A DNA stretch of 35,134 nucleotides from Candidatus Psychracetigena formicireducens (lineage in GTDB: Bacteria > Coprothermobacterota > HKB111). The notes under the pieces are model-generated. The model was not told the origin of the DNA. It searched no databases and was given only the letters and a program-made list of their open reading frames with translations. Below, in pieces: positions 3,958 to 23,870 of this stretch. How positions within the stretch are numbered: position 1 is the first letter of the stretch; every line of letters begins with the position of its first letter. Position numbers and translations under genes: made by a program. Location: assembly GCA_018725125.1 (NCBI GenBank), contig QLTW01000003.1:1-35134 (forward strand), written 5' to 3'.

Positions 3958-4017
3958 TCTTAAACCTGCATAATTTTTTTAAGGCTTAAAAAAAGGCTAC
4001 CACTGGAGAAAAGAGGA

Positions 4018-8029: not shown

Positions 8030-8089
8030 TATTTTAATTTCTCCTTTATAAGAAGGTTTAACAAAATTATTGTATCATGATAATTATCA

Positions 8090-8338: not shown

Positions 8339-8837
8339 TTATAAAACCTCCCAATCTTCTTAAAGTATACGCCCCGGTTGTTCCGATAAACACCCCTGCT
8401 AACACTCCGCTTAGTAATAAAAAAGGAAGATAAACCACCAGATAGGGCTGCTGTAACAATATGACCACCATCAACCATTGAGTAAAATTATGCATCAAAC
8501 CACCTAACATGCTTACAGCTACCACGCCTGTCTCCCTTTTATAAAAATAATACACTGCTTCCATAATCAAAGCGCTAACCACGCCTCCACCTAAACTCAG
8601 AAACCCCCTCAAATCAAAACCCAGAAATAGGTTTACGGTTATAGTTCTTAGAATAGTTATCCAGATAGCTGAATAAGTTCCTAGTGAATACAAGCCAATT
8701 ACTGACATCAGGTTAGCCAGGCCGAGCTTAATTCCAGGTACTGGAGCTGGTAGAGGTGGTTCTATTAAATTGAGCACTACTCCCAGTACTGTTAGAATAC
8801 AAATTCTAACCATCTTGTTAGTGGGTGAGTCCATCAA
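8316..8837 (-). CDS. Gx transporter family / heptaprenyl diphosphate synthase component I-like membrane protein
   Basis: PGIKLGLAN, SLGGG, GGLMHN motifs. Confidence 0.85.
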   Translation of the reverse strand: MMDSPTNKMVRICILTVLGVVLNLIEPPLPAPVPGIKLGLANLMSVIGLYSLGTYSAIWITILRTITVNLFLGFDLRGFLSLGGGVVSALIMEAVYYFYKRETGVVAVSMLGGLMHNFTQWLMVVILLQQPYLVVYLPFLLLSGVLAGVFIGTTGAYTLRRLGGFISGKDLQS

Positions 8838-9204
8838 TTTGGGCTCCTCCCCGGTAGTAAATAATTATCCTGTTAGGTAAACAAACTATAGTTTGGGGGG
8901 GCTCACTTATCCAACCCTGATTCATGCATATTTTATCAGGACAGTAGTGGGGTGAGGCTGGGTTTACTCTAATTTTATAACCATCCAGGTTTAGGATTAA
9001 AACTCCCCAGGAACCTTTTAACTCCACAGTTCTCTTTTCGGAGGGAAGGGGTATTTCTGTAAAAACCTGTCTTTTATATTCTACCACTACCGATTTAATG
9101 CGCTGATTAGCCCCCCCTATTCTGTTTAGAAAGAAGTATATTAAAAAGGATGATAATAACATAAAAATGATAAACAGATAAATCAGTAAATCTCCTCTTT
9201 TCAT
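8818..9204 (-). CDS. NusG domain II-containing membrane-anchored protein
   Basis: MKRGD + TM; CPDKICMNQGWI; IVCLPNR. Confidence 0.88.
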   Translation of the reverse strand: MKRGDLLIYLFIIFMLLSSFLIYFFLNRIGGANQRIKSVVVEYKRQVFTEIPLPSEKRTVELKGSWGVLILNLDGYKIRVNPASPHYCPDKICMNQGWISEPPQTIVCLPNRIIIYYRGGAQIDGLTH

Positions 9205-10214
9205 AACTCAGGCTGAAATAATCTTTCAGCCTCTCCGGTGAAATGAATCTGTAAATCAGAGGTAATAATTATAGCTGATAATGATTTTTGGGTAAGAAAT
9301 TCCATCCCTTTCTCTAACCCCATAGCAAAAACAGCTGTAGAAACAGCATCGGAAAAAAGACCGTTTTTATTTATTATGGTTACGCTCACTAATTCCTCAG
9401 CTGGATAACCCGTAAAAGGATTTAGTAAGTGGTGGTATCTTTTTCCACCAATAATATTATACCTTTCGTAATCACCTGAAGTTGAAACTACCGTAGTTGA
9501 TGGTAAGTTTAACACCCCAATTATACCATCTTTTCTGGGATGTTGAATTCCAATTCTCCAATAATTCCTTCCAGGTGGAGAACCATAAACCCCTATAGTG
9601 CCTCCTGCATTGATAACAGCTCTATCAACCCCCCGGTTACGAAGTATTCCAAAAGCCCTATCCACAGCATAACCCTTAACCACAGCTCCAAAATCAAGAG
9701 ATACCCCGAGAATAGTAAAGGATACCTGACCATCTGGTTCATTTATAATTATATTTTCAGTTTTACTTAAAGATATTGCTTTTTTTATTAAATCTATATC
9801 GGGTAAAACAGAATCCTCTTCTCCTTTAATTATTGGCCTCCAGAGATCAACCAGGGGTCCAATTGCCGGATTAAAATAACCTTCAGTATAACCTGACAAC
9901 TTTATACTCTCTTGGAGTAAATTTTCAAAGATTGAGGGAATTGAAACAGGTTTTTCAAAAGCATTTTTATTAACATTATAAATAACCGAGTTTTCATCGT
10001 AACGATTAAAGATTGATTCCAGTAATTTAAAATCATTTAAAATCTCTTCTAAAACTGCCTCTCCTGGTTGATGGTAAATGGTAATTTCTAAATAGGTATC
10101 CATAGCAAAATCTCTAATAGTTTCCGGTCTGGGCTCTGTTTTATTTACCCAGTAGGCAAATGGTATGACTAAAGCTAAGATAATCAGGGGTAGATATTTA
10201 AATACTCTCCGCAA
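9201..10214 (-). CDS. apbE: FAD:protein FMN transferase
   Basis: LDFGAVVKGYAVD, INAGG, STSGDYERY, YHHLLNP, SDAVSTA; N-terminal TM without a lipobox Cys. Confidence 0.95.
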   Translation of the reverse strand: MRRVFKYLPLIILALVIPFAYWVNKTEPRPETIRDFAMDTYLEITIYHQPGEAVLEEILNDFKLLESIFNRYDENSVIYNVNKNAFEKPVSIPSIFENLLQESIKLSGYTEGYFNPAIGPLVDLWRPIIKGEEDSVLPDIDLIKKAISLSKTENIIINEPDGQVSFTILGVSLDFGAVVKGYAVDRAFGILRNRGVDRAVINAGGTIGVYGSPPGRNYWRIGIQHPRKDGIIGVLNLPSTTVVSTSGDYERYNIIGGKRYHHLLNPFTGYPAEELVSVTIINKNGLFSDAVSTAVFAMGLEKGMEFLTQKSLSAIIITSDLQIHFTGEAERLFQPEL

Positions 10215-11197
10215 GACTTACAACCTCCCTTTTCTGAAACATTAACCTCATAAACCTCAAATCCGCTCCTTCTTATGGCAACACTACCACACTGTGAGCA
10301 TAAACTGTTTTCTTCCAAACTTTCCCAGGTATTCCCTATATAAATAAATTCTATTCCACACTCCTTACCAATTTCTCTGGCTTTGATTAGCGATGGTAAA
10401 GGGGTTGGAGGAAGATAAGAAAAATCAAGATAGGGAAAAAACCTGGTAATATGCCAGGGGGTTTTCTCTCCCAGTTTTTCGCTTATAAAAGTAGCGATTG
10501 ACCTAATTTCATCCTCAGTATCATTGATGGTGGTAATAATGTTGGTAACAATTTCTACATGGGTCCCGGATTCTCTTGCTTGCAAAGCGGAGGCCATCGG
10601 TATTTTGACATCAGATATTCCTGTTATTATTTTAAAACTGTTCTGAGTAAAAGCTTTGATATCAACCCTGTAAACATCCAGGTATTTGAGTAATTCGCTT
10701 AAAGGCTTTTCCCTGATAAATCCATTGGTAACCATAACCGTGTATAAATTATTCTCCTTAGCAATTTTTGCGCTTTCTATCACATATTCAAACCAGATGG
10801 AGGGCTCGTTATAGGTCCAGCTTACTCCTTTAGAGTTTGTTTTTAAGGCTGTATTTATCAACTGGTGAGGAGTAATATCCCTTAAACTTTCATTTTGACT
10901 TGACGAACGAGATAACTCCCAATTCTGACAGTGGCGACACTTTAAATTACATCCCACCGTCCCTGCAGAAAGAACTGAACTTCCGGGTTTATAATGATAA
11001 ACAGGCTTTTTTTCAATTGGGTCAACTGCTAAGGAAGCAACCTGGTTATAAATCAAAGTATAAAGGACGCCGTTAATATTTTCCCTTACACCACACTTAC
11101 CTATTTTTCCTTCGGATAGCAGGCAAAGGTTGGGACAGAGAAGGCAACGAACTTTATTATCTATTAAAGGTTCAAAATAAGATGCTTTTCTCAACAA
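10184..11197 (-). CDS. amrS: AmmeMemoRadiSam system radical SAM enzyme
   Basis: CLLCPNLC...GKCGVR, DPIEKKP, CNLKCRHCQNW, WTYNEP, WHITRFFP. Confidence 0.93.
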   Translation of the reverse strand: MLRKASYFEPLIDNKVRCLLCPNLCLLSEGKIGKCGVRENINGVLYTLIYNQVASLAVDPIEKKPVYHYKPGSSVLSAGTVGCNLKCRHCQNWELSRSSSQNESLRDITPHQLINTALKTNSKGVSWTYNEPSIWFEYVIESAKIAKENNLYTVMVTNGFIREKPLSELLKYLDVYRVDIKAFTQNSFKIITGISDVKIPMASALQARESGTHVEIVTNIITTINDTEDEIRSIATFISEKLGEKTPWHITRFFPYLDFSYLPPTPLPSLIKAREIGKECGIEFIYIGNTWESLEENSLCSQCGSVAIRRSGFEVYEVNVSEKGGCKSCGEYLNIYP

Positions 11198-11209
11198 ATT
11201 AAATTCCTT

Positions 11210-11352
11210 TTATTTATTGGTACTTTTGAACTTTAAAAAATTAATCTCATCAATGCCAGTTTTTAATCGGATAAAGTTTAATTGTTGTTCCACAGAATTT
11301 ATACCTTCCATACCTACCAGGTAAAAACACCTCTTCTGAAGCCTTTTTTCAC
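11210..11352 (-). pseudogene. amrA: frameshifted C-terminal remnant of AMMECR1-domain protein AmrA
   Basis: Three frames give VKKGFRRGVF / FLPG / MEGINSVEQQLNFIRLKTGIDE..., resembling the AMMECR1 C-terminal pattern (RRGxxLPxxEGxxxVEEQxxxxxxKAGI, recalled); lies between amrB and amrS. Confidence 0.7.
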
Positions 11353-11354
11353 TT

Positions 11355-12143
11355 TTACTCTATACCTCCCACCAGATAACCTACACCAAAAGGACCTTCA
11401 TAAGAATACAGCTTTGTCTGAAAGTTTGAATCAGAGAATGCCCCAATTAAAGTCATTAAAGGTCTATAGCCACATTCCCCCGCTCCCTCTAATAACTCCC
11501 AGTCCATATTTTTTACCCTAAAAACATCGCCGGTTTCAAAGAAATTAGCTACCATGCTATCAAATAATTTTCCCTGGGGGTTATATCCAGCAGGTGCGTT
11601 TAAGGTTAAACGATGCGATAAATCACCACTGGCAACTATCAGTAGATTTCTATTCAATTCTCGTGCAGTTTCGCTGATAATTTTTCCAAAGTCAATATGA
11701 TAATCCGCTCCCTCCCAGGCTATACTGGTGATAACCAGCTTCCCCTTGATCCCTTTTTTATGTAAAAAATATAAGGGTAACATGGTGCCATGGTCCAGGG
11801 AAGTTTTATATAAGGGATTGAATTTAACCCTATTTTCCTTAGAGATTAGGCGTGAAATAAATTCTTCGTCACATTCAGCAGAAAGAGTTATCTCAGGAAA
11901 ACCAAAATTGAAAAAATTCCCTTTAACCTCTCTGGAAGTTAGAACCGATATGGCATTTCTGGAAACTGGGGTGTGGGGGCTAATAATAACGATAGTATCA
12001 ATGCTAATCTCTTCCAGAGATTTAAGGGCTTTTTCCATGCCTTTTAAGGTTTTATTAACTTCCAGTAGCCTTTTAGCACCGATTTCTTTTATTAATAATG
12101 GAGGGTGGGGAAAAAGAAAACCTTTTTTAACCGGCATGCACAT
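11355..12143 (-). CDS. amrB: AmmeMemoRadiSam system protein B (MEMO/LigB-like)
   Basis: PHPPLLI, ISPH, LDHG, ASGDLSHRL, GECG, YEGPFGVGY; start may be 12137. Confidence 0.88.
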   Translation of the reverse strand: MCMPVKKGFLFPHPPLLIKEIGAKRLLEVNKTLKGMEKALKSLEEISIDTIVIISPHTPVSRNAISVLTSREVKGNFFNFGFPEITLSAECDEEFISRLISKENRVKFNPLYKTSLDHGTMLPLYFLHKKGIKGKLVITSIAWEGADYHIDFGKIISETARELNRNLLIVASGDLSHRLTLNAPAGYNPQGKLFDSMVANFFETGDVFRVKNMDWELLEGAGECGYRPLMTLIGAFSDSNFQTKLYSYEGPFGVGYLVGGIE

Positions 12144-12954
12144 GCACCGTGGTATAGTTAACTATGCATTTAGTAGGACATTTTTCTACACAAACACCGC
12201 AGTTATTACACAAAGTATAGTCAATCACAGCCAGATTTCCTAAGGATGGTTCAAGATGGATTGCCCCTTGAGGACAGTTCTTAACACAAATGCCACATTT
12301 AATGCAACCTACCTGACAGGCTTTTCTGACTTCAGGACCTTTCTGAGGCGAAACACAGGAAATGATAACTGGATTATCTCGAGGAAAAATATCAATAATT
12401 TTTCTGGGACAGGCTTTAACACATAAACCACAAGCAGTACACTTACTTTCATCAACTAGGGGTAAATTATCAAGGGACATCCTTAGAGCGTCAAAAGGAC
12501 ATACTTTTACGCAATCTGCTAACCCTAAACAACCGTAAAAACATTGCTTAAAACCACCAGAAATCTGAGAAGCGGCATTACAGGTATTAATTCCATAATA
12601 TTCAGCCCTACGAGAGGCTCGAGCTTCGTCTCCCTGACATATGATACAGGCAATACCAGGTTTTACCTGTGAAACCTCAATTCCTAATAAATTTCCAATT
12701 TCAGCAACTACTTTGTTTCCTCCCACAGTACATTTTTCTGGCACTAATTCACCTCGTAAGATGGCTTCAGCTAATTGCCTGCAGCCGGGATAACCGCAAG
12801 CTCCACAATTTGCCCCGGGTAATAGATTTTGAATCAGCTCTAAACGAGGATCTTCTTCAACTTTAAATTTCTGGGAAAATAAGGCTAACCCCAATCCAAA
12901 AACCAGTCCTAAACCACCGGTAATTATTAAACTATGAATAATAAATTCAATCAC
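12127..12954 (-). CDS. rnfB: Rnf complex subunit B (polyferredoxin)
   Basis: TM + LPGANCGACGYPGC and several CxxCxxCxxxCP motifs. Confidence 0.95.
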   Translation of the reverse strand: MIEFIIHSLIITGGLGLVFGLGLALFSQKFKVEEDPRLELIQNLLPGANCGACGYPGCRQLAEAILRGELVPEKCTVGGNKVVAEIGNLLGIEVSQVKPGIACIICQGDEARASRRAEYYGINTCNAASQISGGFKQCFYGCLGLADCVKVCPFDALRMSLDNLPLVDESKCTACGLCVKACPRKIIDIFPRDNPVIISCVSPQKGPEVRKACQVGCIKCGICVKNCPQGAIHLEPSLGNLAVIDYTLCNNCGVCVEKCPTKCIVNYTTVHVHAG

Positions 12955-12966
12955 AATTATACCTCC

Positions 12967-13542
12967 CTACTTAGCCATACCGACAAATCCCATAAAGGCT
13001 ACTGAGAGAATAGCAGTTACTATAAATACTATGGGATAACCTTCCAGAAATTTTGGTACATTGCTGTGCTTTATCCTCAGCCGTAGGTTGGCTAACAGAA
13101 GCATAGCCAGAGTGTAACCCCAGGCAACTCCGACAGAATTAACAATTGACTCTATCAAGGTATATCCCTCTCTTTGATTTATAAAAGTAAGTGCCAGAAT
13201 AGCACAGTTAGTAGTTATCAAAGGTAGGTATATCCCCATAACATGATATAGGGAAGGAATGCTTTTCCTGAGATAAATCTCTACCAATTGAACCAGAGAA
13301 GCAATAACCAGGATAAAGATAAGTGTACTTAAAAAAGTTAACTCCAGTGGTTGTAAAATAAAAACATTCAGAAACCAGGTTACTACTCCGGCTAATACCA
13401 TTACAAAAGTTACTGCCCACCCCATACCCAGAGCAGGTCCGGGTTCAGTAGTCATTCCTACATAAGAACAAAGTGCTAGGAATCTCATAAGAACAATATT
13501 ATTAACAAGTAAAGCGGCAATGAAAAGATTAAGAAGATCCAT
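12967..13542 (-). CDS. rnfA: Rnf complex subunit A
   Basis: NNIVLMRFLALC, VIASLVQLVE, LPLITTNC. Confidence 0.95.
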   Translation of the reverse strand: MDLLNLFIAALLVNNIVLMRFLALCSYVGMTTEPGPALGMGWAVTFVMVLAGVVTWFLNVFILQPLELTFLSTLIFILVIASLVQLVEIYLRKSIPSLYHVMGIYLPLITTNCAILALTFINQREGYTLIESIVNSVGVAWGYTLAMLLLANLRLRIKHSNVPKFLEGYPIVFIVTAILSVAFMGFVGMAK

Positions 13543-14152
13543 GTTTATGTCCTCCGTTACTTTTCAGTTTAAACAGGTTATTGAATATGGCGATCATAAT
13601 GCCGATAGCAAAAAATGCACCTGGAGGAAGAATCATTATCAACGCAGGTTCAAAACCATCAAAAGGTAGAGAAACCCCCAAAATAGTTCCCTTGCCGAGA
13701 AGTTCTCTCGCGCCTGAAAGTAGTATTAGGATCAAGATAAAACCAATTCCCATCCCCAGTCCGTCAGCAATTGACCTTATCAGGGTATTTCTGGAGGCAA
13801 AAGCTTCTGCTCTACCCATAATAATGCAGTTAACTACAATAAGAGGAATGAAAATACCAAGAGCTTTATGCAGGCCGGGAAAATAAGCTGCCATAGATAA
13901 GTCAGTAATAATCACAAAGGTAGCTATAACAATGATAAATATGGGTATCCTGATTTCCTTAGGGACAATATTCCTGATAAGCGCGATGGTGAGGTTTGAA
14001 CCCAGAAGAACAAAGGTGGTAGCAAAACCCATACCAATCCCGTTCATGACAGTTGTGGATACTGCCAGAACCGGGCATAAGCCTATCATCAGTTTTAAAA
14101 CAGCGTTTTCCGTGATAATGCCATTCATAAAATCTTTCCAGAGTTGTTTCAT
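13529..14152 (-). CDS. rnfE: Rnf complex subunit E
   Basis: GLCPVLAV, IPLIVVNC, LPPGAF; ATG 14152 overlaps the rnfG stop (TAATG). Confidence 0.95.
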   Translation of the reverse strand: MKQLWKDFMNGIITENAVLKLMIGLCPVLAVSTTVMNGIGMGFATTFVLLGSNLTIALIRNIVPKEIRIPIFIIVIATFVIITDLSMAAYFPGLHKALGIFIPLIVVNCIIMGRAEAFASRNTLIRSIADGLGMGIGFILILILLSGARELLGKGTILGVSLPFDGFEPALIMILPPGAFFAIGIMIAIFNNLFKLKSNGGHKHGSS

Positions 14153-14718
14153 TATCTCCAAGCCTCCCTATTTCTTAATACATAATCTGCTACTTTCCTT
14201 ACCAGTTTAGCCACTGCTTCTGAAGATTGAGTTGCTCCTGTTATAGCAGTTAAATCTTCATTAATGGTCAAGGGATCGTTTATATTTTTACTTAGGAACA
14301 TACCGATAAATGGTGCTTCAGCAATTTTAGAGCCCAGACCTGGAGTTTCCCTATGCTCTATTATCTCAATCCCGGTTATTTTATTATCAATGGAAATTCC
14401 TATCAATATTACTATAGGGCCTCCATAACCTTCTTCTGTAACCCCTTTAATTGCTACTCCAACCGGGTTTTCCTCTGAGCCAAAACCAAGATATATATTG
14501 GTGATGGTCATTGCCGAATCATCAAGAGGTTTAAGCTCCGAGTTATTCAATTCTTGAAAACTAATAGTCGAAGGTAATACCTCTAATATCGCCAGCTTTA
14601 GCTCTGCAACTCTTCGTTGTTCAATAATAGGTTTGGTTTGAAAATAAACAAAAGCTAATCCCCCTGCTGATATTGCTCCTACCAGCATCAGTATAAAACC
14701 TAGTCGTAGAACATTCAT
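14152..14718 (-). CDS. rnfG: Rnf complex subunit G
   Basis: GYGGPI, ETPGLG and FMN-attachment motif ITGATQSS. Confidence 0.95.
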   Translation of the reverse strand: MNVLRLGFILMLVGAISAGGLAFVYFQTKPIIEQRRVAELKLAILEVLPSTISFQELNNSELKPLDDSAMTITNIYLGFGSEENPVGVAIKGVTEEGYGGPIVILIGISIDNKITGIEIIEHRETPGLGSKIAEAPFIGMFLSKNINDPLTINEDLTAITGATQSSEAVAKLVRKVADYVLRNREAWR

Positions 14719-15650
14719 TTACGCACCATCCCATATTTTCTGGGAAAGGTTGCCTGTTCCAACATAGGTGTAAAGGCATTCATAATTAGGATGGCAAAAG
14801 TAACCCCTTCGGGATAACCACCAAAAACCCTGATAGTGATAGTTAATAGACCACAACCTATGCCAAATAAAAGCTTTCCCCAGGGTGTAATGGGGCTGGT
14901 AACATAATCTGTTGCCATGAAAAATGCCCCCATAAGAATCCCCCCTGCCAGGAGTTCAAAGACTGGATCTCTACCCAGGGTCAGGCTCAAAATAGCTGCT
15001 GATCCCAGGTAAGCAGCAGGTATCTGCCATTCAATAGTTCTTGATAATAATAAGAATATACCTCCTATTATCAGGGCAATGGCTGAGGTTTCACCTAAAG
15101 AACCGGCAATATTACCTAATAATAAATCCTGATAAGAAGGCAATGGTAGATTATCTCTGAAAAAAGCCAGAGGAGTAGCTGTGGTTATCCCTGAAAAAGG
15201 TTGAACAAAAGTTGTCAGGTGGGTAGGCCAGGAAATTAATAAAACTGCCCTTCCAACCAGCGCTGGATTAAAAGGATTATGCCCAAGACCTCCAAAAAAT
15301 TCTTTCGCTACAATAATAGCAATAGCGCTACCCACAATGGGAATCCACCAAGGAGAGGTCGGGGGTAAAGTTAAAGCAAGTAATAATCCGGTAACCACAC
15401 TGCTGGAATAGGTTCCGGTGATAGGTTTTCGTTTAAACAGCCTCAATATGATAAATTCAAATAAAACCGCCGAAGCAACTGATAAACCCACAACTTTTAA
15501 AAAACTAATCCATCCAAAAAAGTAAAAAGCTGCTATAGAAGCCGGTATCAGGGATAGTATAACTCTATTCATTATTTTATCGCTGTTGATATTGGCATGA
15601 AAATGGGGAGAAGGTGAAATTATAACTTTACTTAGATTCAATTCTGCCAA
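14715..15650 (-). CDS. rnfD: Rnf complex subunit D
   Basis: SPH, GGLGHNPFNPA, TTATPL flavinylation site, GSLGETS, FMATD. Confidence 0.95.
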   Translation of the reverse strand: MAELNLSKVIISPSPHFHANINSDKIMNRVILSLIPASIAAFYFFGWISFLKVVGLSVASAVLFEFIILRLFKRKPITGTYSSSVVTGLLLALTLPPTSPWWIPIVGSAIAIIVAKEFFGGLGHNPFNPALVGRAVLLISWPTHLTTFVQPFSGITTATPLAFFRDNLPLPSYQDLLLGNIAGSLGETSAIALIIGGIFLLLSRTIEWQIPAAYLGSAAILSLTLGRDPVFELLAGGILMGAFFMATDYVTSPITPWGKLLFGIGCGLLTITIRVFGGYPEGVTFAILIMNAFTPMLEQATFPRKYGMVRK

Positions 15651-15663
15651 CTTATCCTACCTC

Positions 15664-16965
15664 CTATGACTTTGAACTCGTCATTTTTATTTTAAACAGT
15701 TCGGTTTTGGCAACTTTAACATAGTGAACAAGGGGAATATTAGCTGGACAGACATAAGAGCACTTACCACACTCAAAACAGTCAGAAGCTCCATAAAATT
15801 CTGCCATTGAATAGTCGCCTAACTTAGTATTGGAAGCGATATAGGCTGGCATCAACCTCAGAGGGCAATTTAGAACGCACCTGCCGCACCTTATACAATC
15901 TGCAGCTTCTTGAAACCTGGTTTTCTTTAGAAACAACAAACCAGATGTTCCCTTTATTATAGGTACTTCAAGAGTAGCTTGAGAAAAACCAGTCATAGGT
16001 CCACCCATAATAAGCCTGGAGTAACTATCAGAGAACTCAACTAAATTATTTATAACATCTTTGACCATTACCCCTAAGTGAACTTTAACATTGATAGCTT
16101 CATTTACAGCATCCCCAGAAATAGTAATTACCTTCTCAGTAAATACTTTACCTTCAAAAACAGCCTCTGTTAGGCTAATAGCAGTTGATACATTGCTAAC
16201 CACTACACCCACATCCAGAGGAAGTCCTCCCCGGGGTACTTCTTTTCCAATAATAGTCTTAATCATTACTTTTTCAGCTCCCTGTGGGTATTTACTCGGT
16301 AAAACAAAAACTCTAATATCTGAGGTTTGTCTGACCATTTCTATTAGTAGGTTAATAGCATCCTTTTTATTATCTTCAATAGCAATTAACCCCTTTTTGG
16401 CTCCTACTGCTAACATGATAAGTTTTAAGCCCGAAATTAATTTTTCTGGATTTTCCAGCATCTGCCTGTGGTCTACAGTTAGAAATGGTTCGCATTCTGC
16501 TCCATTGATAATGGCATATTCAATCGGTTTAGTTGGGTTTAACTTTACATGAGTTGGAAAGGCTGCGCCACCTTGTCCAACCAACCCAGCTTCTCTTGCT
16601 CTTAATCTGACTTCATCTGGGGTAATAGGATAATTTAATGGACTTAGCAATATCTCATCAGTATTACCATTTGCTTCTATAGTAATTGACGCCATCTCTC
16701 GACCAAGCATCGGGTGAAACCAGGGAGAAATTGATTTTACAATTCCACTTATAGATGAATGAATGGGAGCAAAAATATAACTTGGAGAATCTCCAATAAC
16801 CTGCCCTTTTATTACAGTATCCCCTGCTTTTACAGTCGGTTGAGCTTGTGCTCCAGTATGTTGTTGCATCAACATTACAACTCTTTTGGGAATTGGAAGA
16901 TTAATTATCGGTTTTTTACTGGAATATTTGAACTCAGGTGGATAAAACTCATGTTCAAGAATCAT
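15664..16965 (-). CDS. rnfC: Rnf complex subunit C
   Basis: GQGGAAFPTHVK, INGAECEP, YPQGAEK, two 4Fe-4S motifs; SD AAGGAG lies inside the PHP gene. Confidence 0.96.
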   Translation of the reverse strand: MILEHEFYPPEFKYSSKKPIINLPIPKRVVMLMQQHTGAQAQPTVKAGDTVIKGQVIGDSPSYIFAPIHSSISGIVKSISPWFHPMLGREMASITIEANGNTDEILLSPLNYPITPDEVRLRAREAGLVGQGGAAFPTHVKLNPTKPIEYAIINGAECEPFLTVDHRQMLENPEKLISGLKLIMLAVGAKKGLIAIEDNKKDAINLLIEMVRQTSDIRVFVLPSKYPQGAEKVMIKTIIGKEVPRGGLPLDVGVVVSNVSTAISLTEAVFEGKVFTEKVITISGDAVNEAINVKVHLGVMVKDVINNLVEFSDSYSRLIMGGPMTGFSQATLEVPIIKGTSGLLFLKKTRFQEAADCIRCGRCVLNCPLRLMPAYIASNTKLGDYSMAEFYGASDCFECGKCSYVCPANIPLVHYVKVAKTELFKIKMTSSKS

Positions 16966-17701
16966 CTTTTCTCCTTAACCATCTGCCTTCTATGTTTCTT
17001 AAGGCTAATTTTAACTCTTCCCAGGTAGGTTCGTTAACCCAAGCCTGAGTGACAAATCTACCTATAGTTGGAAGGTCATGAGCATCAGAACCATAAATAA
17101 TCCCGACATTTTTAGGAATTATCGGTTTACAATTTGTATAATTGTCTATTTCTACCCCATCAATATCTATATCAGGGGGTATAAAACCTAATTGAGAATA
17201 AATACTAAAAGCTGGACGGTTAATATGAGCCAGAATTACCAGGACTTCATAGGTTCTGGCCAGCTTAATGACAGTATCAAGCGGTAAATCAACGGAAAAT
17301 AATAGTAATTGCTTTTCAACTTTAATCACCATATCATTATCATTGACCAGGCATTGAGGTTTTATAGCAGTTACATCATCCATAATTGAGGGTGATTTTT
17401 TAAGAATTTCAACTTCAAACCTTAGTGCTTGTTGGTAAGAACGAAAATATAACAACAGGTGAACTTCTTCTTTGGTTTGCACTTCCATTGCCGGGATAAG
17501 CTTTACACCACTTATTTTACCCCGCTTACAGAAACCCGGATAATTACGAACTGAATGGTGGTCAGTTATGCCAATTAAATCTAAACCTTTCTTTTTGGCT
17601 TCCGCTAAAACTTTTTTGGGGCTCATATCCCAGGTAGAACAAGGGGATAAGACAGAGTGTATGTGCAAATCAAAGTTATACCACTGCAAATATAGTATCA
17701 C
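16955..17701 (-). CDS. PHP-domain phosphoesterase
   Basis: DLHIHS, ITDHHS, AHINR, SDAH metal-binding motifs. Confidence 0.9.
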   Translation of the reverse strand: MILYLQWYNFDLHIHSVLSPCSTWDMSPKKVLAEAKKKGLDLIGITDHHSVRNYPGFCKRGKISGVKLIPAMEVQTKEEVHLLLYFRSYQQALRFEVEILKKSPSIMDDVTAIKPQCLVNDNDMVIKVEKQLLLFSVDLPLDTVIKLARTYEVLVILAHINRPAFSIYSQLGFIPPDIDIDGVEIDNYTNCKPIIPKNVGIIYGSDAHDLPTIGRFVTQAWVNEPTWEELKLALRNIEGRWLRRKDDS

Positions 17702-18030
17702 CTTATCCCGGACAAATATAAACTTCCGGAAAGTTCATAAGAAGGTAATGAACTTTTTAGAATTGTTATCCCTTCTTCCTGGGCTTTGTCAATCACCTCC
17801 TCATTAACCTCCAGATTAGAGGTTACTATGACTGCCGCTACCTTACAAAGCGAGGCAACAGCAACTACATTCATATGTGTTTGAATGGTTAACCACAAAT
17901 CACCTTCTTTAGCATTCCCCATCACATAACTGAGTAAGTCTGAAACAATACCGCTCCTTACTTCTACTTCCAGGTTACCTTCGCTTATTACCTGTAAATT
18001 CAAACTATCAATAACTTCTCTTAGTAACAA
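17698..18030 (-). CDS. DRTGG-domain protein
   Basis: SDLLSYVM, LWLTIQTHMNVVAVA; SD AAGGAGGT before TTG. Confidence 0.85.
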   Translation of the reverse strand: MLLREVIDSLNLQVISEGNLEVEVRSGIVSDLLSYVMGNAKEGDLWLTIQTHMNVVAVASLCKVAAVIVTSNLEVNEEVIDKAQEEGITILKSSLPSYELSGSLYLSGIR

Positions 18031-18045
18031 ATAACTATACCTCCT

Positions 18046-19326
18046 TTATTTAAATCTCTGGGGTGATGGACCAAGGCGAGATAAATCCGCAACCTCTTCA
18101 GCTAATTTTTTTAGTTTATCTTTTAAAACGAAAATGCAATCTGTTATATAAGACCATCCCAATACCACATCTTCAGCAAAAGCTCTGCAGGTAGGGGCTC
18201 CGCAAGCACCACAATCTATACCCGGAAGCGTATCCAGGATATGTTCTAATTGCTCAAATTTCCGAAGCGATACTTCCATTTCTTCATCCAACTTTAACAC
18301 CGGTCATTCAGTAATCTGTTTTTTTAGGTCAAATAAACCAATGTTAAAATCATTAATCAACTCTTCTCGCCTCTCATCAGAAACCAAGGTTTTTGGTGAT
18401 TTCCTCGCCCTTCTAAAATACTGCATCAATACCACCGGAGACAGAGCATTAAGAATCCCACCTGCACAACCATAATCACAAGCCCAGAGCTCTATAATAT
18501 CTGGAGAGAGATTATGTTTTATCTCTTCTTCATGAAGGGCATCTTTTATCCGATTTATACTGCATAAAGACAATATGTCTTTCTCGGGTATAGCTTCTGA
18601 AAACCACTCACCGCAGCAAGCTATAATTCCTTCACTTAAATCTCCAGAGGGTGTTTTTTCAAAATACCGACGAGCCAGGTGATAAAAATGATTCATAGGT
18701 ATAGCATAATCTAATCGAGATGAGTCTATACCCAGTGGAAATTTAATAGAAGTGATCTGTGCTGGACAGGTAGTAGGCAGGGCTACCTTTATTTTGTTAT
18801 CTTTTTTCTTAAACAGTCCAGCACTAATCTCCCAAGGAGAGTCAAACATAGCAACATTGCTCAATAAGTTGGGAAAACTTACAGTTAGCAATCTTAAGAC
18901 ACTTGGGCATACAGGGGGTATAAACCCCTTTTTCTTACCTGCTTTATCCATATGCAAATGTAATAACTTTGGATAAGATTCAAAAATTAAACTCATATCA
19001 TAAGCTGCTTTAAACCCCAGGGATTTAATAAACTTGTTTACTGTAGCAAAAGCTGGAGGAGTATCAAAATGTAAATAAAAAACCGGAGGTATTAACACCA
19101 CAACATTATCTCTTTCAGGAATACTGGAAATATGGTCAAAAATCACACCTCGGGCTTTATAAGGACAAACCCGTATACACTCTCCACAATCTATACACCT
19201 TATTGGTAATATACGAGCTTTCCCATCTACCACTCTGATTGCTTCAGTGGGACAGTTGCGAACACAATGGGTGCACCCTTTACATAGGTCGTCTTCAATA
19301 GTAATTGAATGCATGTAACCCTTCAC
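18046..19326 (-). pseudogene. [FeFe]-hydrogenase-like Fe-S sensor protein interrupted by one in-frame TGA (18304-18306)
   Basis: 2x CxxCxxCxxxCP, degenerate H-cluster motifs, then ...QITE*PVLKLD...LPGIDCGACGAPTC in the same frame; the 84-aa downstream ORF has no clear SD; 426 aa if read through. Confidence 0.75.
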
Positions 19327-20237
19327 TTTAACCTCCTGATGAGATTAACTACCGAGTAAACTTTTGTACCTACACCCACACGGCTGTCAATCTGAAAAAT
19401 ATCAGAATTTCTCTTTATATTTGGCAACCCCATTCCTGCACCAAAACCCATTTCTCTTATATAGTCCGGCGCAGTAGTAAACCCTTCTTGCATAGCTAAA
19501 CTCACATCAGATATTCCTGGTCCCTTATCCTCAGCAGTCACCTCAATTTTTTCGGAGTTTATTTTAACCTGCAAAAAACCTTTATCAGCATGGATTATAA
19601 TATTCATTTCAGCTTCATAAGCTATTATACCTGTCCTCCTTAAATCTTTAGGGTCAATGGATAATTGTTGCAGGGATTTCCGCATCTGCAGGGAAGCATT
19701 CCCGGCATGAACAAAATCCCTTCCTAAAACCTGGTAAGTATAGCTTATTACTCCTTCTGATGGAATAGTTTTTTTAACAACCATGCTCGTGTCCAGAGCT
19801 TCCTGTAAAAACGCAAATAATGACCACCAATACACTACCCCTATAACTTTAAACTCCTCATCAACCACAGGAAGCCGCCCATATTTAAAGCGGTTCATTT
19901 CTCTAAGAGCTTCAATGAGAGTTTTACTTAGAATTAAGCATTTTACCGGTGTAGTCATATATTTACTTACCGGAGCTTCCAGGTCTTTATTCTCAATGCA
20001 GATAATCAGGTCACTAATAGAAATAATACCTAAAAGATGACCTTCATCGTCAGTTACTGGAACCCCATCAAGTCTTCTAATTCTCATTAACTCTTTGATA
20101 TGTCTCATCTGCCAATAGGGAGTGACCTGTGGAATATTCCTTACCATCACTTTTTCTACAGAATAAGAAAGAATATCTGGTCCTAACTTATTAGTTACTT
20201 CTGAGTCCATGGTCATATAAAATTCCGCAGGTTTCAA
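19323..20237 (-). CDS. CBS-pair + RsbT/anti-sigma-type HATPase (Ser/Thr kinase-like) fusion
   Basis: Two CBS repeats (GVPVTD...GIIS; RLPVVD...GVV), then YEAEMNIIIHA, DKGPGI, GFGAGMGLPNI; start may be ATG 20216 or 20210. Confidence 0.88.
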   Translation of the reverse strand: MKPAEFYMTMDSEVTNKLGPDILSYSVEKVMVRNIPQVTPYWQMRHIKELMRIRRLDGVPVTDDEGHLLGIISISDLIICIENKDLEAPVSKYMTTPVKCLILSKTLIEALREMNRFKYGRLPVVDEEFKVIGVVYWWSLFAFLQEALDTSMVVKKTIPSEGVISYTYQVLGRDFVHAGNASLQMRKSLQQLSIDPKDLRRTGIIAYEAEMNIIIHADKGFLQVKINSEKIEVTAEDKGPGISDVSLAMQEGFTTAPDYIREMGFGAGMGLPNIKRNSDIFQIDSRVGVGTKVYSVVNLIRRLK

Positions 20238-20532
20238 ACAACGATAGATCAGTGGATACTATAGGAATATCTAACTCCTCTGCAAGATTCAGGATGGTAT
20301 CATCGGTCTTTTTTCCACTTACAATTATTATTCCTACCATCCCAACCATTTCTGCTGTTCTCACAATCTGGGGCGTAGCTAAAGAGGTTATCAGAAGGGC
20401 TTCTTCGGTGGGAGAAGCGAGAACATCTGACATTAAATCAGCTGCCCAGGCTTTATCTATTTCTATACTTTCCAGATGCTGGCAAACACAAATTCTACCC
20501 TTAATCAGGTTAACAATGTAATTAAGTTTCAC
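20191..20532 (-). CDS. DRTGG-domain protein
   Basis: AADLMSDVLA, QIVRTAEM, FETCGILY. Confidence 0.85.
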   Translation of the reverse strand: MKLNYIVNLIKGRICVCQHLESIEIDKAWAADLMSDVLASPTEEALLITSLATPQIVRTAEMVGMVGIIIVSGKKTDDTILNLAEELDIPIVSTDLSLFETCGILYDHGLRSN

Positions 20533-23164
20533 ATCCTTCTCCTTGAAGATAATTTATGATTTGGTCAATTTTCGCTATTTGTTTATGATACTCTTGCTCT
20601 CTATGCTTAAATTCTTCAATGGTAGCTGGTGAAGCTTTTTCCCTGAATAGAGGATTCCTGAGATAATTTTGGACCCTTTCCAACTCAGTGGATAATTCAA
20701 CCAGACTTCCTTTAAGTTTTATAATTTCTTCTTCAATCTCTACTAAACCTTTCAAGTTGACAAATATTGTAGTTCCCCTGACTACTTGAATAGCTGAACT
20801 TTTAGGCCAGGTTTCCAGGTCATAGGCGATGTTCAAATCTCCAATATCTACCATATTTTTGATATAGTTAGCACCTTCAACTAATGATTGATATTCAAAG
20901 GCATCTGAGGGATGAATAACCACTTTTATGGGGCGTGTGGGTTTAATTTTGAATAAACTACGAATGTTCCTTATTGAAGAAATAATACCAAAGATGTAAT
21001 TTGTTTTTTCCAGAGCTAATTTACATTCAGGAAAATCAACTTTACTAACCCACTCCTGGATTATCAAAGGCTGTAAATTATCCCGATTAAGATTACACCA
21101 GAGCTCTTCGGTAATAAATGGAATAACTGGATGCAATAGAATTAAGATGTTTTTCAAAACATAATATAGGGTAAACAGGGTTCCCTGGCTATCTTTCTTG
21201 AATTTGGATATTTCCAGGTACCAATCACAATAATCCTTCCAGAAGAACTCTTCAATTGCTTTTACATATCCCGCCATATCATAAGAATCAAATTTATCGT
21301 TAATCTCTTTAACTAATTCAGATAAACGCGATAGGATGTACCTGTCAAACAGGTCTAAATCAGTCTCTTCAGGTATTTTTTCAAACTTATTCTCCCCGAG
21401 GGTATGAATAACATAGCGAGAAGCATTCCACAGTTTGTTCATGAAATTCCTGCTATGTAGGAGTAACGGTTTAGTTAAAGTGATATCCTGACCTCCGAGG
21501 GTGCTTAAAGATGTTAGGGTAAACCTGAGGGCATCGGTACCAAAATCTTTTATCAAATCAAGGGGATCAAGAACATTTTTCAGAGATTTAGACATTTTTC
21601 TGCCTTTCTCATCTCTCACTAAACCATGTATTAAAACATTTTTAAATGGTGGTTTACCGGTTAACTCTAATCCTGCCATGATCATCCGGGAAACCCAAAA
21701 GGTCAGTATGTCATAACCTGTGACTAAAACTGAAGTGGGATAGAAATATTGTAAATCCGGGGTTGAATCAGGCCAACCAAAAACTGAAAAGGGCCATAAA
21801 GCAGAACTAAACCAGGTATCCAGAACATCTTCAACTTCTTCAAAGTTCTCAGAGGAACAATGACTGCATTTTTCAGGTGTTTCCCGGGAAACGATAACTT
21901 CTCCGCAAGACTGACAAATCCAGGCTGGAATGCGGTGTCCCCACCAGAGTTGCCTGGAAATACACCAATCTTGGAGATTTTCCATCCAATCCAGATACAC
22001 TGCAGACCATCTCTCTGGAGTGAAGATAATTTCTCCACTTTTTACTTTCTCAATAGCTGCTTTTTTAATTTCTTGGACACCTAAAAACCATTGCACAGAC
22101 AGCAATGGTTCTATTATAGTATGGCACCTACTGCATCTTCCCGGAGAATATCTGTAAGACTCAGTTTTTACCAATCTATTTTCCAGGTTAAGTTTTTTTA
22201 GCATTAATTCCCGGGCTTCCAATACTGATAAGCCAGCAAAGTCACTACCAGATTCTTCAGCCATAAAACCATGTTCGTTAATAACTCTTATGAGGGGAAG
22301 ATTATGCCGTTTTCCGATTTCATAGTCGAGAAAATCGTGACCTGGGGTTACTTTTACCACCCCAGAACCAAATTCTGGGTCAACCAGAGTGTCAGCAATA
22401 ATAGGCAAATTTCTACCAACAACGGGCAAAATAGCTACTTTTCCAACAACTGATTTATACCTCAAATCATCTGGATGAACCGCTAAAGCAACATCCCCCG
22501 GCATAGTTTCTGGCCTGGAGGTTACTATTTCTAGGTCACCACCCTGTTCAAGTTCATAAGTTATATGGTAAAGTTTTCCTTCTACCTCTTCCCTCTCTAC
22601 TTCAATATCAGAAATTGCGGTATGACAGTGCGGACATAAATTGACCAGGTATTCGCCTCGATAAATATAACCTTTTTCATACATGCGAACAAAAAACTCA
22701 GTTACTGCACGAGAGCAAATGTTGTCAAGGGTGAATCTTTCTCTGTTCCAGTCACAGGAAGCCCCCATTTTTTTTATCTGAGAGGTAATAACCCAATGAT
22801 ATTTTTCCTTCCACTCCCACATATACTTCTGAAATTCCTGTTTACCTATTCTGGATCTCTCTATACCCAGTTTACTAAGCTCTTCTTCCACCACATTTTG
22901 CGCAGCAATCCCTGCATGGTCGGTTCCCGGTACCCATAATGTAGGAATTTTTTGCATACGATTAATCCTGACTAAAATATCCTGCAATGTTACATCAAGA
23001 GCATGTCCTATATGAAGAGAGCCGGTAACATTGGGAGGGGGTAAAACAATAACAAAAGGAGGTGAACCAGCAAATGTTTGTGGTGTAAAATAACCTTTCT
23101 CCTCCCAGAATCGGTACCACTTCTCTTCTACTTCTTCCGGGTTATATCTGGTAGATAAGTTCAA
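20522..23164 (-). CDS. valS: valine--tRNA ligase
   Basis: PPPNVTGSLHIGH, WCISRQLWWGH, KMSKS, C-terminal coiled coil. Confidence 0.98.
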   Translation of the reverse strand: MNLSTRYNPEEVEEKWYRFWEEKGYFTPQTFAGSPPFVIVLPPPNVTGSLHIGHALDVTLQDILVRINRMQKIPTLWVPGTDHAGIAAQNVVEEELSKLGIERSRIGKQEFQKYMWEWKEKYHWVITSQIKKMGASCDWNRERFTLDNICSRAVTEFFVRMYEKGYIYRGEYLVNLCPHCHTAISDIEVEREEVEGKLYHITYELEQGGDLEIVTSRPETMPGDVALAVHPDDLRYKSVVGKVAILPVVGRNLPIIADTLVDPEFGSGVVKVTPGHDFLDYEIGKRHNLPLIRVINEHGFMAEESGSDFAGLSVLEARELMLKKLNLENRLVKTESYRYSPGRCSRCHTIIEPLLSVQWFLGVQEIKKAAIEKVKSGEIIFTPERWSAVYLDWMENLQDWCISRQLWWGHRIPAWICQSCGEVIVSRETPEKCSHCSSENFEEVEDVLDTWFSSALWPFSVFGWPDSTPDLQYFYPTSVLVTGYDILTFWVSRMIMAGLELTGKPPFKNVLIHGLVRDEKGRKMSKSLKNVLDPLDLIKDFGTDALRFTLTSLSTLGGQDITLTKPLLLHSRNFMNKLWNASRYVIHTLGENKFEKIPEETDLDLFDRYILSRLSELVKEINDKFDSYDMAGYVKAIEEFFWKDYCDWYLEISKFKKDSQGTLFTLYYVLKNILILLHPVIPFITEELWCNLNRDNLQPLIIQEWVSKVDFPECKLALEKTNYIFGIISSIRNIRSLFKIKPTRPIKVVIHPSDAFEYQSLVEGANYIKNMVDIGDLNIAYDLETWPKSSAIQVVRGTTIFVNLKGLVEIEEEIIKLKGSLVELSTELERVQNYLRNPLFREKASPATIEEFKHREQEYHKQIAKIDQIINYLQGEGCET

Positions 23165-23216
23165 TTCATTTACCTCATTAAAAATTAAATTACATCTAAT
23201 AAATATACCTTATTAT

Positions 23217-23870
23217 TTATTTTCCTGCAATAGCTTGCAGTATTTCCCAATACATTTTCAAGTGAGATAAAAACCCTCTCCAAAATCCCAATTTTTCTGT
23301 CTTCATAACCTGGGAAACACCATATAAATATACCTTTTTTTCTTTGAGACCCATCTTTCTAATATTTTTATAAATCAAGGGCTCAATAGCATAACCTTTT
23401 CCTTGCAATGAATCTTTCATTAAAAAAAAGGTTTCTCTTTTTATTGCTCGTTGGGAATTTAGGGCTGGGGTTAAGGCTTGAGTAAAGTCGGTGATTAATC
23501 TTCCGCCTTTAAACACTCCAATAGATGTATCAACCTCTCCAGTAAAGACAGGAGTTAAAAGGGAGTCAAGGTGGTGTGGTTTAAGATTAGTTATATCTGC
23601 ATCAATAAATAGTAATACTTCATAACTTGAAAGCTTTGCACCGGTAATCAAAGCGTTACTTTTACCTGAATTTTTTTTAAACTCAACCAGATAATCAGTA
23701 TTATTGATAGCTGATTCAGATGTCATATCTGTTGACCCATCATTAATTACTATTATTTCCCCAACTAACTCAGATTGGATTACCGCTTGGATAACCTGTC
23801 CTATTCTGGGTTCTTCGTTATAAGCAGGAATAATTACTGAAGCTTTTTTTTCAAAAAACTGCTCAACCAT
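23217..23870 (-). CDS. glycosyltransferase family 2
   Basis: IIPAYNEE, INDGSTD, FIDAD. Confidence 0.9.
   Translation of the reverse strand: MVEQFFEKKASVIIPAYNEEPRIGQVIQAVIQSELVGEIIVINDGSTDMTSESAINNTDYLVEFKKNSGKSNALITGAKLSSYEVLLFIDADITNLKPHHLDSLLTPVFTGEVDTSIGVFKGGRLITDFTQALTPALNSQRAIKRETFFLMKDSLQGKGYAIEPLIYKNIRKMGLKEKKVYLYGVSQVMKTEKLGFWRGFLSHLKMYWEILQAIAGK

Follow-up and report, generated by a model that had tools for sequence, protein, structure and literature searches.

A sensory-hydrogenase-type gene cassette adjoining rnf in a family of candidate division WS2, and its possible role in matching Rnf activity to redox and adenylate state

What might a set of putative signalling genes, which in most other genomes stands beside NuoF-type enzymes, be doing directly upstream of the genes for the Rnf complex? 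The question is raised by a 35,134-nt stretch of DNA from the metagenome-assembled genome (MAG) of Candidatus Psychracetigena formicireducens (contig QLTW01000003.1, positions 1 to 35,134; this whole stretch is called the window below). Here, a cassette encoding two DRTGG proteins, a CBS-CBS-HATPase protein, a HydS-like Fe-S protein and a PHP-family phosphoesterase leads straight into rnfCDGEAB. In many anaerobes, Rnf governs both the ferredoxin/NADH balance and the ion gradient, and we know of no dedicated regulator of this complex. We propose that the cassette works at the post-translational level, as a regulatory module that would match Rnf activity to the redox and adenylate state of the cell; we give this reading somewhat less than even odds (a probability of about 0.45), and a regulatory role over Rnf appears plausible to us on the evidence that follows.

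The cassette and rnf in the window and in other genomes

Searches for Pfam and NCBIfam domains found every gene that had been named in an earlier, purely sequence-based reading of this DNA (the original prediction), namely DRTGG, CBS+HATPase, Fe-S, DRTGG, PHP and rnfCDGEAB, all on the minus strand and at the positions listed here together with the flanking valS and apbE genes.

20191..20532, minus strand: DRTGG-1, a single-domain protein of 113 residues (PF07085, 28.9 bits against a cut-off of 25.2), with Ser35 in SDLMSDV
19323..20237, minus strand: CBS-CBS-HATPase protein of 304 residues (CBS, E 9e-23, in two stretches; HATPase_c, 28.9 bits)
18304..19326, minus strand: N-terminal 340 residues of the HydS-like Fe-S protein (two 4Fe-4S motifs; Fe_hyd_lg_C, 36.2 bits against a cut-off of 22.1)
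18046..18300, minus strand: C-terminal Fe-S domain of the HydS-like protein, an open reading frame (ORF) of 84 residues (Cx2Cx4Cx16C; PF04060, E 1.4e-14)
17698..18030, minus strand: DRTGG-2, a single-domain protein of 110 residues (PF07085, 29.5 bits; Hpr_kinase_N, E 6.4e-6), with Ser34 in SDLLSYV
16955..17701, minus strand: PHP-family metal-dependent phosphoesterase of 248 residues (PF02811, 38.9 bits), the last 11 nt overlapping rnfC
15664..16965, minus strand: rnfC, the NADH/FMN-binding subunit with a NuoF-like domain (TIGR01945, 465 bits against a cut-off of 246; Complex1_51K, E 2e-49; RnfC_N)
14715..15650, minus strand: rnfD (NQR2_RnfD_RnfE, E 1.6e-110)
14152..14718, minus strand: rnfG (FMN_bind, E 1.1e-17)
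13529..14161, minus strand: rnfE (Rnf-Nqr, E 1.3e-65)
12967..13542, minus strand: rnfA (Rnf-Nqr, E 3.8e-49)
12127..12954, minus strand: rnfB (FeS domain PF04060 and several Fer4 families; RnfB models, 245–261 bits)
20522..23164, minus strand: valS, valyl-tRNA synthetase (tRNA-synt_1, E 1.2e-138), the upstream gene, whose last 11 nt overlap DRTGG-1
9201..10214, minus strand: apbE, flavin transferase (ApbE, E 1.4e-74), downstream in the same co-directional array

The genes are packed tightly. As originally described, overlaps of 11 nt join valS to DRTGG-1 and PHP to rnfC; further overlaps of 4 nt join the CBS-kinase gene to the Fe-S gene and DRTGG-2 to PHP. A Shine-Dalgarno-like AGGAG for DRTGG-1 is embedded in the 3' end of valS, and an AAGGAG lies within the 3' end of PHP, 5 nt ahead of the rnfC ATG. 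Contigs from two RNA libraries span the junctions (record 13 of library X4 corresponds to 14363-24000, and records of library X6 to 14849-17702 and 17718-21007). Because these bridging contigs are assembled and possibly reflect DNA carry-over, and a single contig is no proof of a single transcript, they give only a weak hint that valS is co-transcribed with DRTGG-1 and PHP with rnfC. A consensus scan of positions 9000-25500 was uninformative as to promoters, with 58 promoter-like sites against 49.5 ± 7.4 expected; terminator-like sites numbered 25 against 13.2 ± 4.4 expected, and the minus-strand ones within 12127-20532 lie inside ORFs.

The arrangement was compared across 13 species genomes of the phylum. 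Four of these make up the window's family in candidate division WS2: G000 (the window's own genome), G011 and G012 share a genus, and G010 represents a second one. Six genomes belong to a sister family and three to a third family. The direct PHP–rnfC junction, with its overlap, occurs in all four genomes of the window's family and hence in both genera. The longer order gcpE-GT2-valS-cassette-rnfCDGEAB-Memo-like...ApbE recurs in G012, G011 and G010 (the G011 contig ends inside the cassette), and the valS–cassette junction and the position of apbE are the same in G012 and G010. Since the order is found in every genome of the family, it is not due to chance. Between the window and G012, the ratio of nonsynonymous to synonymous substitution rates (dN/dS) was 0.09–0.19 for the cassette genes, 0.14 for valS and 0.09–0.30 for the rnf genes. 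By these ratios, purifying selection acts on the cassette as strongly as on rnf, and the cassette is therefore not decaying.

RnfD was detected in 4/4 genomes of the window's family, 0/6 of the sister family and 0/3 of the third. In the sister family (G001, G002, G003 and G005) the cassette is of the canonical type described below, with a short kinase and a sensor of 449–454 residues, and PHP is followed by NuoE, a second HATPase (HATPase2), the small protein u126, NuoF and HydA.

To see how usual such a context is, we turned to contigs representing one genome per species, in which a PHP profile search returned at least 588 relatives. The best 80 loci were examined; 73 gave a PHP ORF, the other seven, where the ORF caller had missed it, being left out, and downstream sequence of 5 kb or more was available for 55 of the 73. 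Annotation combined a crude ORF caller, BLAST labels derived from the window proteins and Pfam checks of cluster representatives. The cassette itself recurs across many phyla, in the canonical order DRTGG, short HATPase (about 143 residues), HydS-like protein (about 453 residues), DRTGG and PHP, after which come a second HATPase (about 182 residues), NuoE, a 127-residue protein (u127), NuoF and a catalytic subunit. Among the 55 loci, the downstream partner was NuoF only in 15, HydA in 14, a [NiFe] hydrogenase in 11, Rnf without HydA or [NiFe] in four and Rnf after HydA in two; nine had none. NuoF-type partners were thus present in 42/55 loci (the two with Rnf plus HydA included), a second HATPase within three genes of PHP in 48/55, and rnf downstream in 6/55. 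These counts agree with the statement, in the original prediction, that the cassette usually precedes NuoEF/HydABC-type genes together with a further HATPase. They also show, with the four genomes of the family, that adjacency to rnf is not peculiar to this genome, the circumstance that would have spoken against the original prediction. The locus is the cassette that accompanies putative sensory [FeFe] hydrogenases of group D (M2e), here in a form tied to Rnf.

The kinase sets the window's cassette apart as well. In the genome survey, a CBS-kinase was encoded in 13 of the 63 loci that had a kinase ORF, and in none of these 13 did a HydS-like gene adjoin. A metagenome survey seeded with the kinase (at least 571 relatives, 80 loci examined) gave a CBS-kinase in 64/68 loci, only one of which (L102) also had a HydS-like gene. 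Loci of this CBS type typically read DRTGG-CBS-kinase-DRTGG-PHP-NuoE-HATPase2-u127-NuoF-NuoE-NuoF-NuoG-like-[NiFe], and rnfC followed PHP in 0/80 metagenome loci. The presence of a HydS-like gene and a CBS-kinase in one cassette is therefore a rare combination; the cassette of the window's family, which unites both sensors, is alone in adjoining rnfC without a second HATPase.

Several observations concern the surroundings of the locus. The six Rnf subunits are complete, and their order C-D-G-E-A-B is repeated in G012, G011 and G010; from the known function of its family, the apbE product probably serves the flavinylation of RnfG and RnfD. The whole window is a single co-directional minus-strand array of core genes, with rpsB, tsf, pyrH, frr, cdsA, an M50 protease gene, ispG, a glycosyltransferase gene and valS before the locus and mreBCD, PBP2, rodA, rho and thyX after it. 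Downstream of rnf, a gap of 157 nt (11198-11354) separates the Memo-like gene (11355-12143) from a radical SAM gene (10184-11197). G012 and G010 carry an AMMECR1 gene (170-177 residues; PF01871, E ~1e-42) between these two genes; the window's AmmeMemoRadiSam set lacks component A here, as there is only the 157-nt gap, and contigs of public sequencing runs, compared with the window, had no insertion at this gap.

Immediately upstream of the cassette, valS is also found in loci L048, L049, L064 and L084, from distant lineages including Atribacterota, Thermosediminibacteraceae and Peptococcia, and this neighbourhood is therefore older than the window's family. For L084 and L048 we considered and rejected a cassette placed before a Nuo/Mrp-like membrane complex; the genes after PHP begin with MraZ. 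In both loci (L084 from 10762-11268 onward) the cassette has no second HATPase and no redox enzyme downstream, and the genes past mraZ resemble a cell-division cluster, by ORF lengths only.

As to the MAG, it comprises 2.1 Mb in 426 contigs and is 89.7% complete and 9.4% contaminated, the genomes of the relatives being 1.2-1.3 Mb. The nearest named protein comes from a MAG of candidate division WS2. It holds additional RnfD-like matches outside the window (C282:14-1012, C95:3-227 and C6:2-130). From the excess size, the contamination and these matches, the MAG probably includes DNA of another organism or strain.

The HydS-like Fe-S protein

Two features of the hydrogenase-like gene had been overlooked in the original prediction, namely an in-frame stop codon and the probable loss of the H2-sensing cofactor. 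A single TGA at 18304-18306 divides the HydS-like gene from the 84-residue ORF, the reading frame being otherwise continuous. The protein is unbroken in relatives (426 residues in G012 and 431 in G010; the survey cluster has a median of 453), and the codon is AGA (Arg) in G012. We also looked at contigs of four public runs, two RNA libraries (X4 and X6) and two DNA runs (X2 and X3). A T at 18306 makes the codon AGA in X4, X6 and X2; X3 shares the TGA of the window. Because AGA is present in other runs and in relatives, the TGA is a strain allele and not a family trait: it is a nonsense allele, splitting the gene, that segregates between populations. A GTG two codons past the TGA could restart translation.

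The protein has the hallmarks of a sensory hydrogenase. Its residues 8-58 match Fer4_6, Fer4_10 and Fer4_7, and the N-terminal cysteines C15, C21, C25, C44, C47, C50 and C54 are invariant in 43 rows of the alignment. The equivalents of the H-cluster cysteines C300, C355, C499 and C503 are retained in 3/3 sensors of the window's family. At the 299 equivalent there is a Val (hence no Cys299) and at 353, two residues ahead of the Cys355 equivalent, a Thr. The C-terminal Cx2Cx4Cx16C cysteines are retained in all 48 sensor rows (three from the window's family, three from the sister family and 42 from the survey), and a Pfam search gave no match to a PAS domain. For the M2e/group D class, PMC8163306 lists two N-terminal 4Fe-4S motifs, no Cys299, no PAS domain, a Thr at 353 and a Cx2Cx4Cx16C motif near the C-terminus. 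On these motifs, the HydS-like protein is assigned to the group D (M2e) type of putative sensory [FeFe] hydrogenases and resembles TamHydS. The orthologous sensor of G012, which is 86% identical to the window's protein, gave a model with a predicted local distance difference test (pLDDT) score of 91.6. All of the top 50 PDB matches listed for this model are [FeFe] hydrogenases or complexes containing one (template-modelling score TMq 0.53-0.67), among them a hydrogen-dependent CO2 reductase.

The surroundings of the putative active site are altered, though, in the window's family. At the equivalent of K358, a lysine that holds a cyanide ligand of the [2Fe] site, 3/3 sensors have Gln, as against Lys in 37/42 survey sensors, 3/3 sensors of the sister family and both HydA sequences. 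The P354 equivalent is Thr or Ser, as against Pro in 40/42 survey sensors. The sensors score 24-44 bits with PF02906, those of the sister family 126-133 bits, and the third family has no match. True HydA (349-358 bits) was found in 0/4 genomes of the window's family, which has only the weak sensor match to PF02906, in 5/6 of the sister family and in 0/3 of the third; the corresponding figures for HydG were 0/4, 4/6 and 0/3. HydE above the cut-off was found in 0/4 genomes of the window's family and was present in G002, the sole sister-family genome searched, and HydF above the cut-off was not found in the window's own genome. Because the genomes of the family are 83-95% complete, the absence of HydEFG is strong but not absolute. 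Given the missing HydA, HydG and HydE, the changed pocket residues and the low H-domain score, the sensor of the window's family very probably binds 4Fe-4S clusters only, with no [2Fe] subcluster, and hence would not sense H2.

A comparable case is offered by two Bacillota loci without HydA (L020 and L063), whose sensors have an Arg at the K358 equivalent and whose genomes (G015 and G016) have no HydG; G015 also has no other hydrogenase H-domain. In the HydA proteins of the sister family (L099, 11718-13469; L098, 4263-6008), the first H-cluster motif aligns as Cys-Ser-Pro, against x-Cys-Pro in the sensors. The ligand cysteine thus seems to be displaced by a single residue, perhaps only through the alignment.

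If the sensor did still respond to H2, Rnf would be tuned to ambient hydrogen, as proposed for another organism, Vallitalea (PMC6163223). The four retained H-cluster cysteines and the hydrogenase fold would suit this idea, and a [NiFe] hydrogenase in the genome makes H2 part of the metabolism. Nevertheless, the maturases HydG and HydE are missing from all four genomes and HydF from that of the window, the K358-equivalent lysine has become Gln with loss of the neighbouring Pro, and the H-domain score has dropped from ~130 to 24-44 bits, so that we regard an H2-sensing role as extremely unlikely.

The kinase, DRTGG and PHP proteins and what they may regulate

The CBS-CBS-HATPase protein matches HATPase_c_2 with 26.8 bits, slightly below the cut-off of 27.4, and its top NCBIfam match is the anti-sigma F factor TIGR01925 (E 5.6e-13; 49 bits, below the cut-off of 135). 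The closest solved structure is SpoIIAB (E 4e-12), and the N, G1 and G2 boxes (E208, E210, N212, D237, G239, G241 and G264-G270) are invariant in 50 rows. The kinase foreseen in the original prediction is thus SpoIIAB-like, with its ATP-binding motifs intact; the whole protein can be described as a GHKL ATPase or serine kinase of the SpoIIAB/RsbW kind that carries a putative adenylate-type sensor pair.

A transcriptional partner switch was also considered, in which the kinase would be the anti-sigma factor for a SigB/F/G-type sigma factor and a DRTGG protein would serve as anti-anti-sigma factor in place of a STAS protein. A sigma factor scoring above the SigBFG cut-off does occur in 4/4 genomes of the window's family (247-251 bits versus 234), the cassette kinase is the sole HATPase_c_2 match above the cut-off in each of G000, G012 and G010, and a STAS protein, which would be the usual partner, was found in 0/13 genomes of the phylum. 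However, the sigma gene is distant from the cassette, in a cysS...alaS array where no kinase adjoins it, and the third family has related sigma factors yet no cassette. Across phyla, moreover, the cassette travels with NuoF/RnfC-type enzymes and not with sigma genes. We consider such a switch very unlikely. The array that holds the sigma gene (G012:C11, L186 4984-5760; G000:C46:19064-19735) reads cysS-SpoU methylase-rhomboid-RseC-like-YtxH-sigma-alaS.

The two DRTGG proteins are highly conserved. In DRTGG-1, D32, S35, T49, Q55 and K74 are invariant in 50/50 rows, and so are D31, L32, L33, S34, W46, T48, Q50, H52 and N54 in 50/50 rows of DRTGG-2; both serines singled out in the original prediction are therefore conserved without exception. 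In a model of DRTGG-1 (pLDDT 95.6), Ser35 falls within the opening turn of a helix. The top PDB match of the model is AF1212, a DRTGG protein (TM 0.85), and the model also matches the DRTGG domain of a CBS-pyrophosphatase (PDB 3l2b and 3l31; TM 0.76) and the N-domains of HPr kinases. An ATP-dependent step on the DRTGG serine appears plausible. A complex prediction for the HATPase domain (residues 165-304) with DRTGG-1 scored 0.29 against a mark of 0.32, and speaks neither for nor against binding.

The PHP protein keeps its His, Asp and Glu metal ligands without variation in 30 rows. Among solved structures, it comes closest to those of Endonuclease Q (E 2e-16), a 5'-3' exoribonuclease (E 5e-8) and nucleotide phosphoesterases. 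Fusions among cassette parts were looked for and rejected: the extra N-terminal parts of the long PHP and kinase ORFs in the survey gave no DRTGG match at E 1e-4, and they may be ORF-start artefacts of the crude ORF caller.

From these elements, we infer sensing, phosphotransfer, a role for PHP and Rnf as the target in the following manner. The activity under control would be the exchange of electrons between ferredoxin and NAD+ coupled to ion pumping by Rnf. One input would be the redox state, sensed by the Fe-S clusters of the HydS-like protein, and the other the adenylate or energy state, sensed by the CBS pair on the kinase. The kinase would act, in an ATP-dependent fashion, on the invariant serine of both DRTGG proteins, and the PHP enzyme would be the resetting hydrolase. 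The output would fall on RnfC, a NuoF-like flavoprotein; RnfC stands where NuoF/HydB adjoins the cassette in most other genomes.

In its most specific form, the proposal would describe a new kind of partner switch, with a cofactor-less sensor and with DRTGG proteins replacing STAS proteins as phospho-acceptors; by way of RnfC, it would directly gate Rnf in response to adenylate charge and to the redox state of ferredoxin. We hold this version to be improbable. If true, it would provide the first dedicated post-translational regulator of Rnf and, at the same time, the long-sought signalling route for group D sensory hydrogenases.

Beyond the incompleteness of the genomes and the possible DNA carry-over mentioned above, several findings tell against Rnf regulation by phosphotransfer. 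The sensor is truncated by the TGA in the window's own allele. No STAS protein is among the structure matches listed for the DRTGG-1 model and, as there is none in the phylum, the analogy with SpoIIAA/SpoIIAB is without a homologous substrate. Likewise, no PHP-type protein phosphatase is among the 12 structure-relative matches of PHP, and a protein-phosphatase role for PHP is the least secure element of the model. The partner switch foreseen in the original prediction thus holds as far as the kinase motifs and the invariant serines go, whereas the DRTGG fold is not that of STAS proteins and the relatives of PHP are nucleases and nucleotide phosphoesterases.

These last points would fit a different chemistry. 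The CBS and DRTGG domains might bind an adenine (di)nucleotide, which PHP would hydrolyse (or it would act on some other phosphodiester), with the GHKL protein as an ATP-driven clamp or binding protein, and the module would regulate Rnf or NuoEF enzymes allosterically. The nucleic-acid and nucleotide phosphoesterases closest to PHP suggest as much, as do the DRTGG fold shared with the nucleotide-regulated insert of CBS-pyrophosphatases, the CBS pair on the kinase and the lack of a STAS substrate in the phylum. On the other hand, both DRTGG paralogs have an unvarying serine where a helix begins, which, taken with a SpoIIAB-like kinase whose ATP motifs are intact, fits phosphotransfer well, and most cassettes have no CBS pair (the kinase is short in 40/57 loci). 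On balance, we consider a nucleotide-ligand module unlikely.

Phosphotransfer or not, Rnf need not be the target. The HydABC/NuoEFG-like genes and further HATPase said to be absent in the original prediction are indeed absent from the window, but genes of the NuoEF type and the HATPase are present in the genome. Contig C113 of the MAG (3000-17000; locus L182; G+C 0.371) carries an operon of the kind that usually accompanies CBS-type cassettes, in the order NuoE, HATPase2 (178 residues), a small protein of the u127 type (125 residues), a NuoF/GltD-like fusion (1042 residues), NuoE, NuoF, NuoG-like, and the small and large [NiFe] subunits. No cassette lies upstream of it, unrelated genes being found there instead. 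G012 and G010 have NuoF and NuoE matches with a spacing like that in C113, and each genome of the family has 3-5 NuoF-type genes. In loci L119, L120, L123, L139, L158 and L163, a gene set of the C113 type comes directly after DRTGG-CBS-kinase-DRTGG-PHP. Because C113 corresponds to the partner operon of CBS-type cassettes elsewhere, its enzyme is a serious rival target, or both enzymes may be targets.

The position next to rnf could then be a leftover of hyd-gene loss, and Bacillota loci provide what looks like a graded series. L064 and L047 read cassette-NuoE-HATPase2-u127-NuoF-HydA-rnf; L020 and L063 are the same without HydA; L022 and L034 have HATPase2 only before rnfC; and the window's family stands at the end of the series, with nothing between PHP and rnfC. 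These Clostridial loci resemble steps of hyd-gene loss, of which the adjacency could be a by-product. Adjacency of hyd and rnf genes has been published for Tepidanaerobacter (PMC4374699).

A PHP tree was built from 49 rows chosen out of 109 (a FastTree run of all 109 rows was made without support values). The sister family is nested in a Bacillota clade with L022, L034, L020 and L063 (support of 98 by the Shimodaira–Hasegawa-like approximate likelihood ratio test, SH-aLRT), and the window's family stands apart on a long stem. In the approximately unbiased (AU) test, a single WS2 clade was not rejected (p 0.226, log-likelihood difference 12.2). An origin in place from the hyd-linked cassette of the sister family is neither favoured nor rejected for the cassette of the window's family by the tree and the AU test.

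A cassette that merely hitch-hikes with rnf, or acts in trans on NuoEF-type enzymes and above all on that of C113, would thus be in keeping with the C113 operon having kept its second HATPase and [NiFe] hydrogenase, with the loci in which such an operon follows a cassette, with the Bacillota series and with the multiple NuoF-type genes. Against hitch-hiking, the PHP/rnfC overlap and its embedded ribosome-binding site have been kept in two genera, and all cassette genes are under purifying selection at a level like that of rnf; a purely trans-acting module would have no evident reason for a lasting translational coupling to rnfC. For these reasons we find it doubtful that Rnf is not a target, although action in trans and regulation of Rnf are not mutually exclusive.

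Comparison with known systems

In the main texts of the open-access literature, we found no description of the DRTGG/PHP cassette or of such a link to Rnf; the passages of PMC4676874, PMC11406978 and PMC4374699 that were examined do not describe the cassette either. On Rnf regulation, the only suggestion found in open-access literature concerns Vallitalea guaymasensis L81, where rnf has beside it the genes of a histidine kinase and of a putative sensory hydrogenase of the [FeFe] type, both proposed to regulate Rnf (PMC6163223). According to that paper, the Vallitalea sensor belongs to HydDB group C1 and has H2 as its signal, whereas the sensor of the window's family seemingly lacks the cofactor and is accompanied by DRTGG, CBS and PHP components.

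The likeness to SpoIIAB-SpoIIAA and RsbW-RsbV lies in a small GHKL ATPase, closest to SpoIIAB, with a small protein that bears an invariant serine encoded just upstream. The differences are that the candidate substrate in the window is a DRTGG and not a STAS protein, that the candidate phosphatase is a PHP and not a PP2C enzyme, that no sigma factor is encoded at the locus, and that an Fe-S sensor and a CBS pair are built in.

The same CBS and DRTGG domain types occur, in a regulatory role, in the CBS-DRTGG-CBS insert of family II pyrophosphatases (3l2b and 3l31), an insert that is regulated by adenine nucleotides. In the window, however, the DRTGG proteins are free-standing, it is a kinase that bears the CBS pair, and the enzyme that would be regulated is not a pyrophosphatase.

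The Bacillota loci L022, L034, L020 and L063 have the same five-gene cassette upstream of rnf. Unlike the window, these loci have a short kinase without a CBS pair and have kept the second HATPase; for L022 and L034, HydA is still encoded elsewhere in the genome.

The group D putative sensory hydrogenase TamHydS of Thermoanaerobacter mathranii (PMC8163306; PMC13104023) shares with the sensor of the window's family its architecture, the hydrogenase fold and Ser/Thr at 353. Both papers state that the signalling partners and route of group D sensory hydrogenases are unknown. A bifurcating group A hydrogenase is encoded downstream of such sensors, where the window's family has rnfCDGEAB instead. 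The window's family differs further by having no H-cluster maturases in its genomes, a Gln at the K358 equivalent with loss of the adjacent Pro, a CBS pair on the kinase and no second HATPase at the locus, and by a C-terminal sensor domain that is split off by the TGA in the window's allele.

Taken together, the cassette is known but uncharacterized; what is new here is its conserved and selected tie to Rnf, a sensor that is probably cofactor-less and a gained CBS input. The locus amounts to a natural experiment on group D signalling, in which the cassette has moved from a hydrogenase to Rnf, the sensor has apparently lost its cofactor and an adenylate-type sensor has been added. The move, the cofactor loss, the gain of the CBS pair and the purifying selection argue that the cassette would serve flavoprotein complexes of the NuoF/RnfC type in general, regulating them by redox and energy state, and would not be a hydrogen sensor as such. 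The locus also names concrete candidates for the sites of such signalling: Ser35 and Ser34 of the DRTGG proteins, the ATP site of the kinase and the metal site of PHP.

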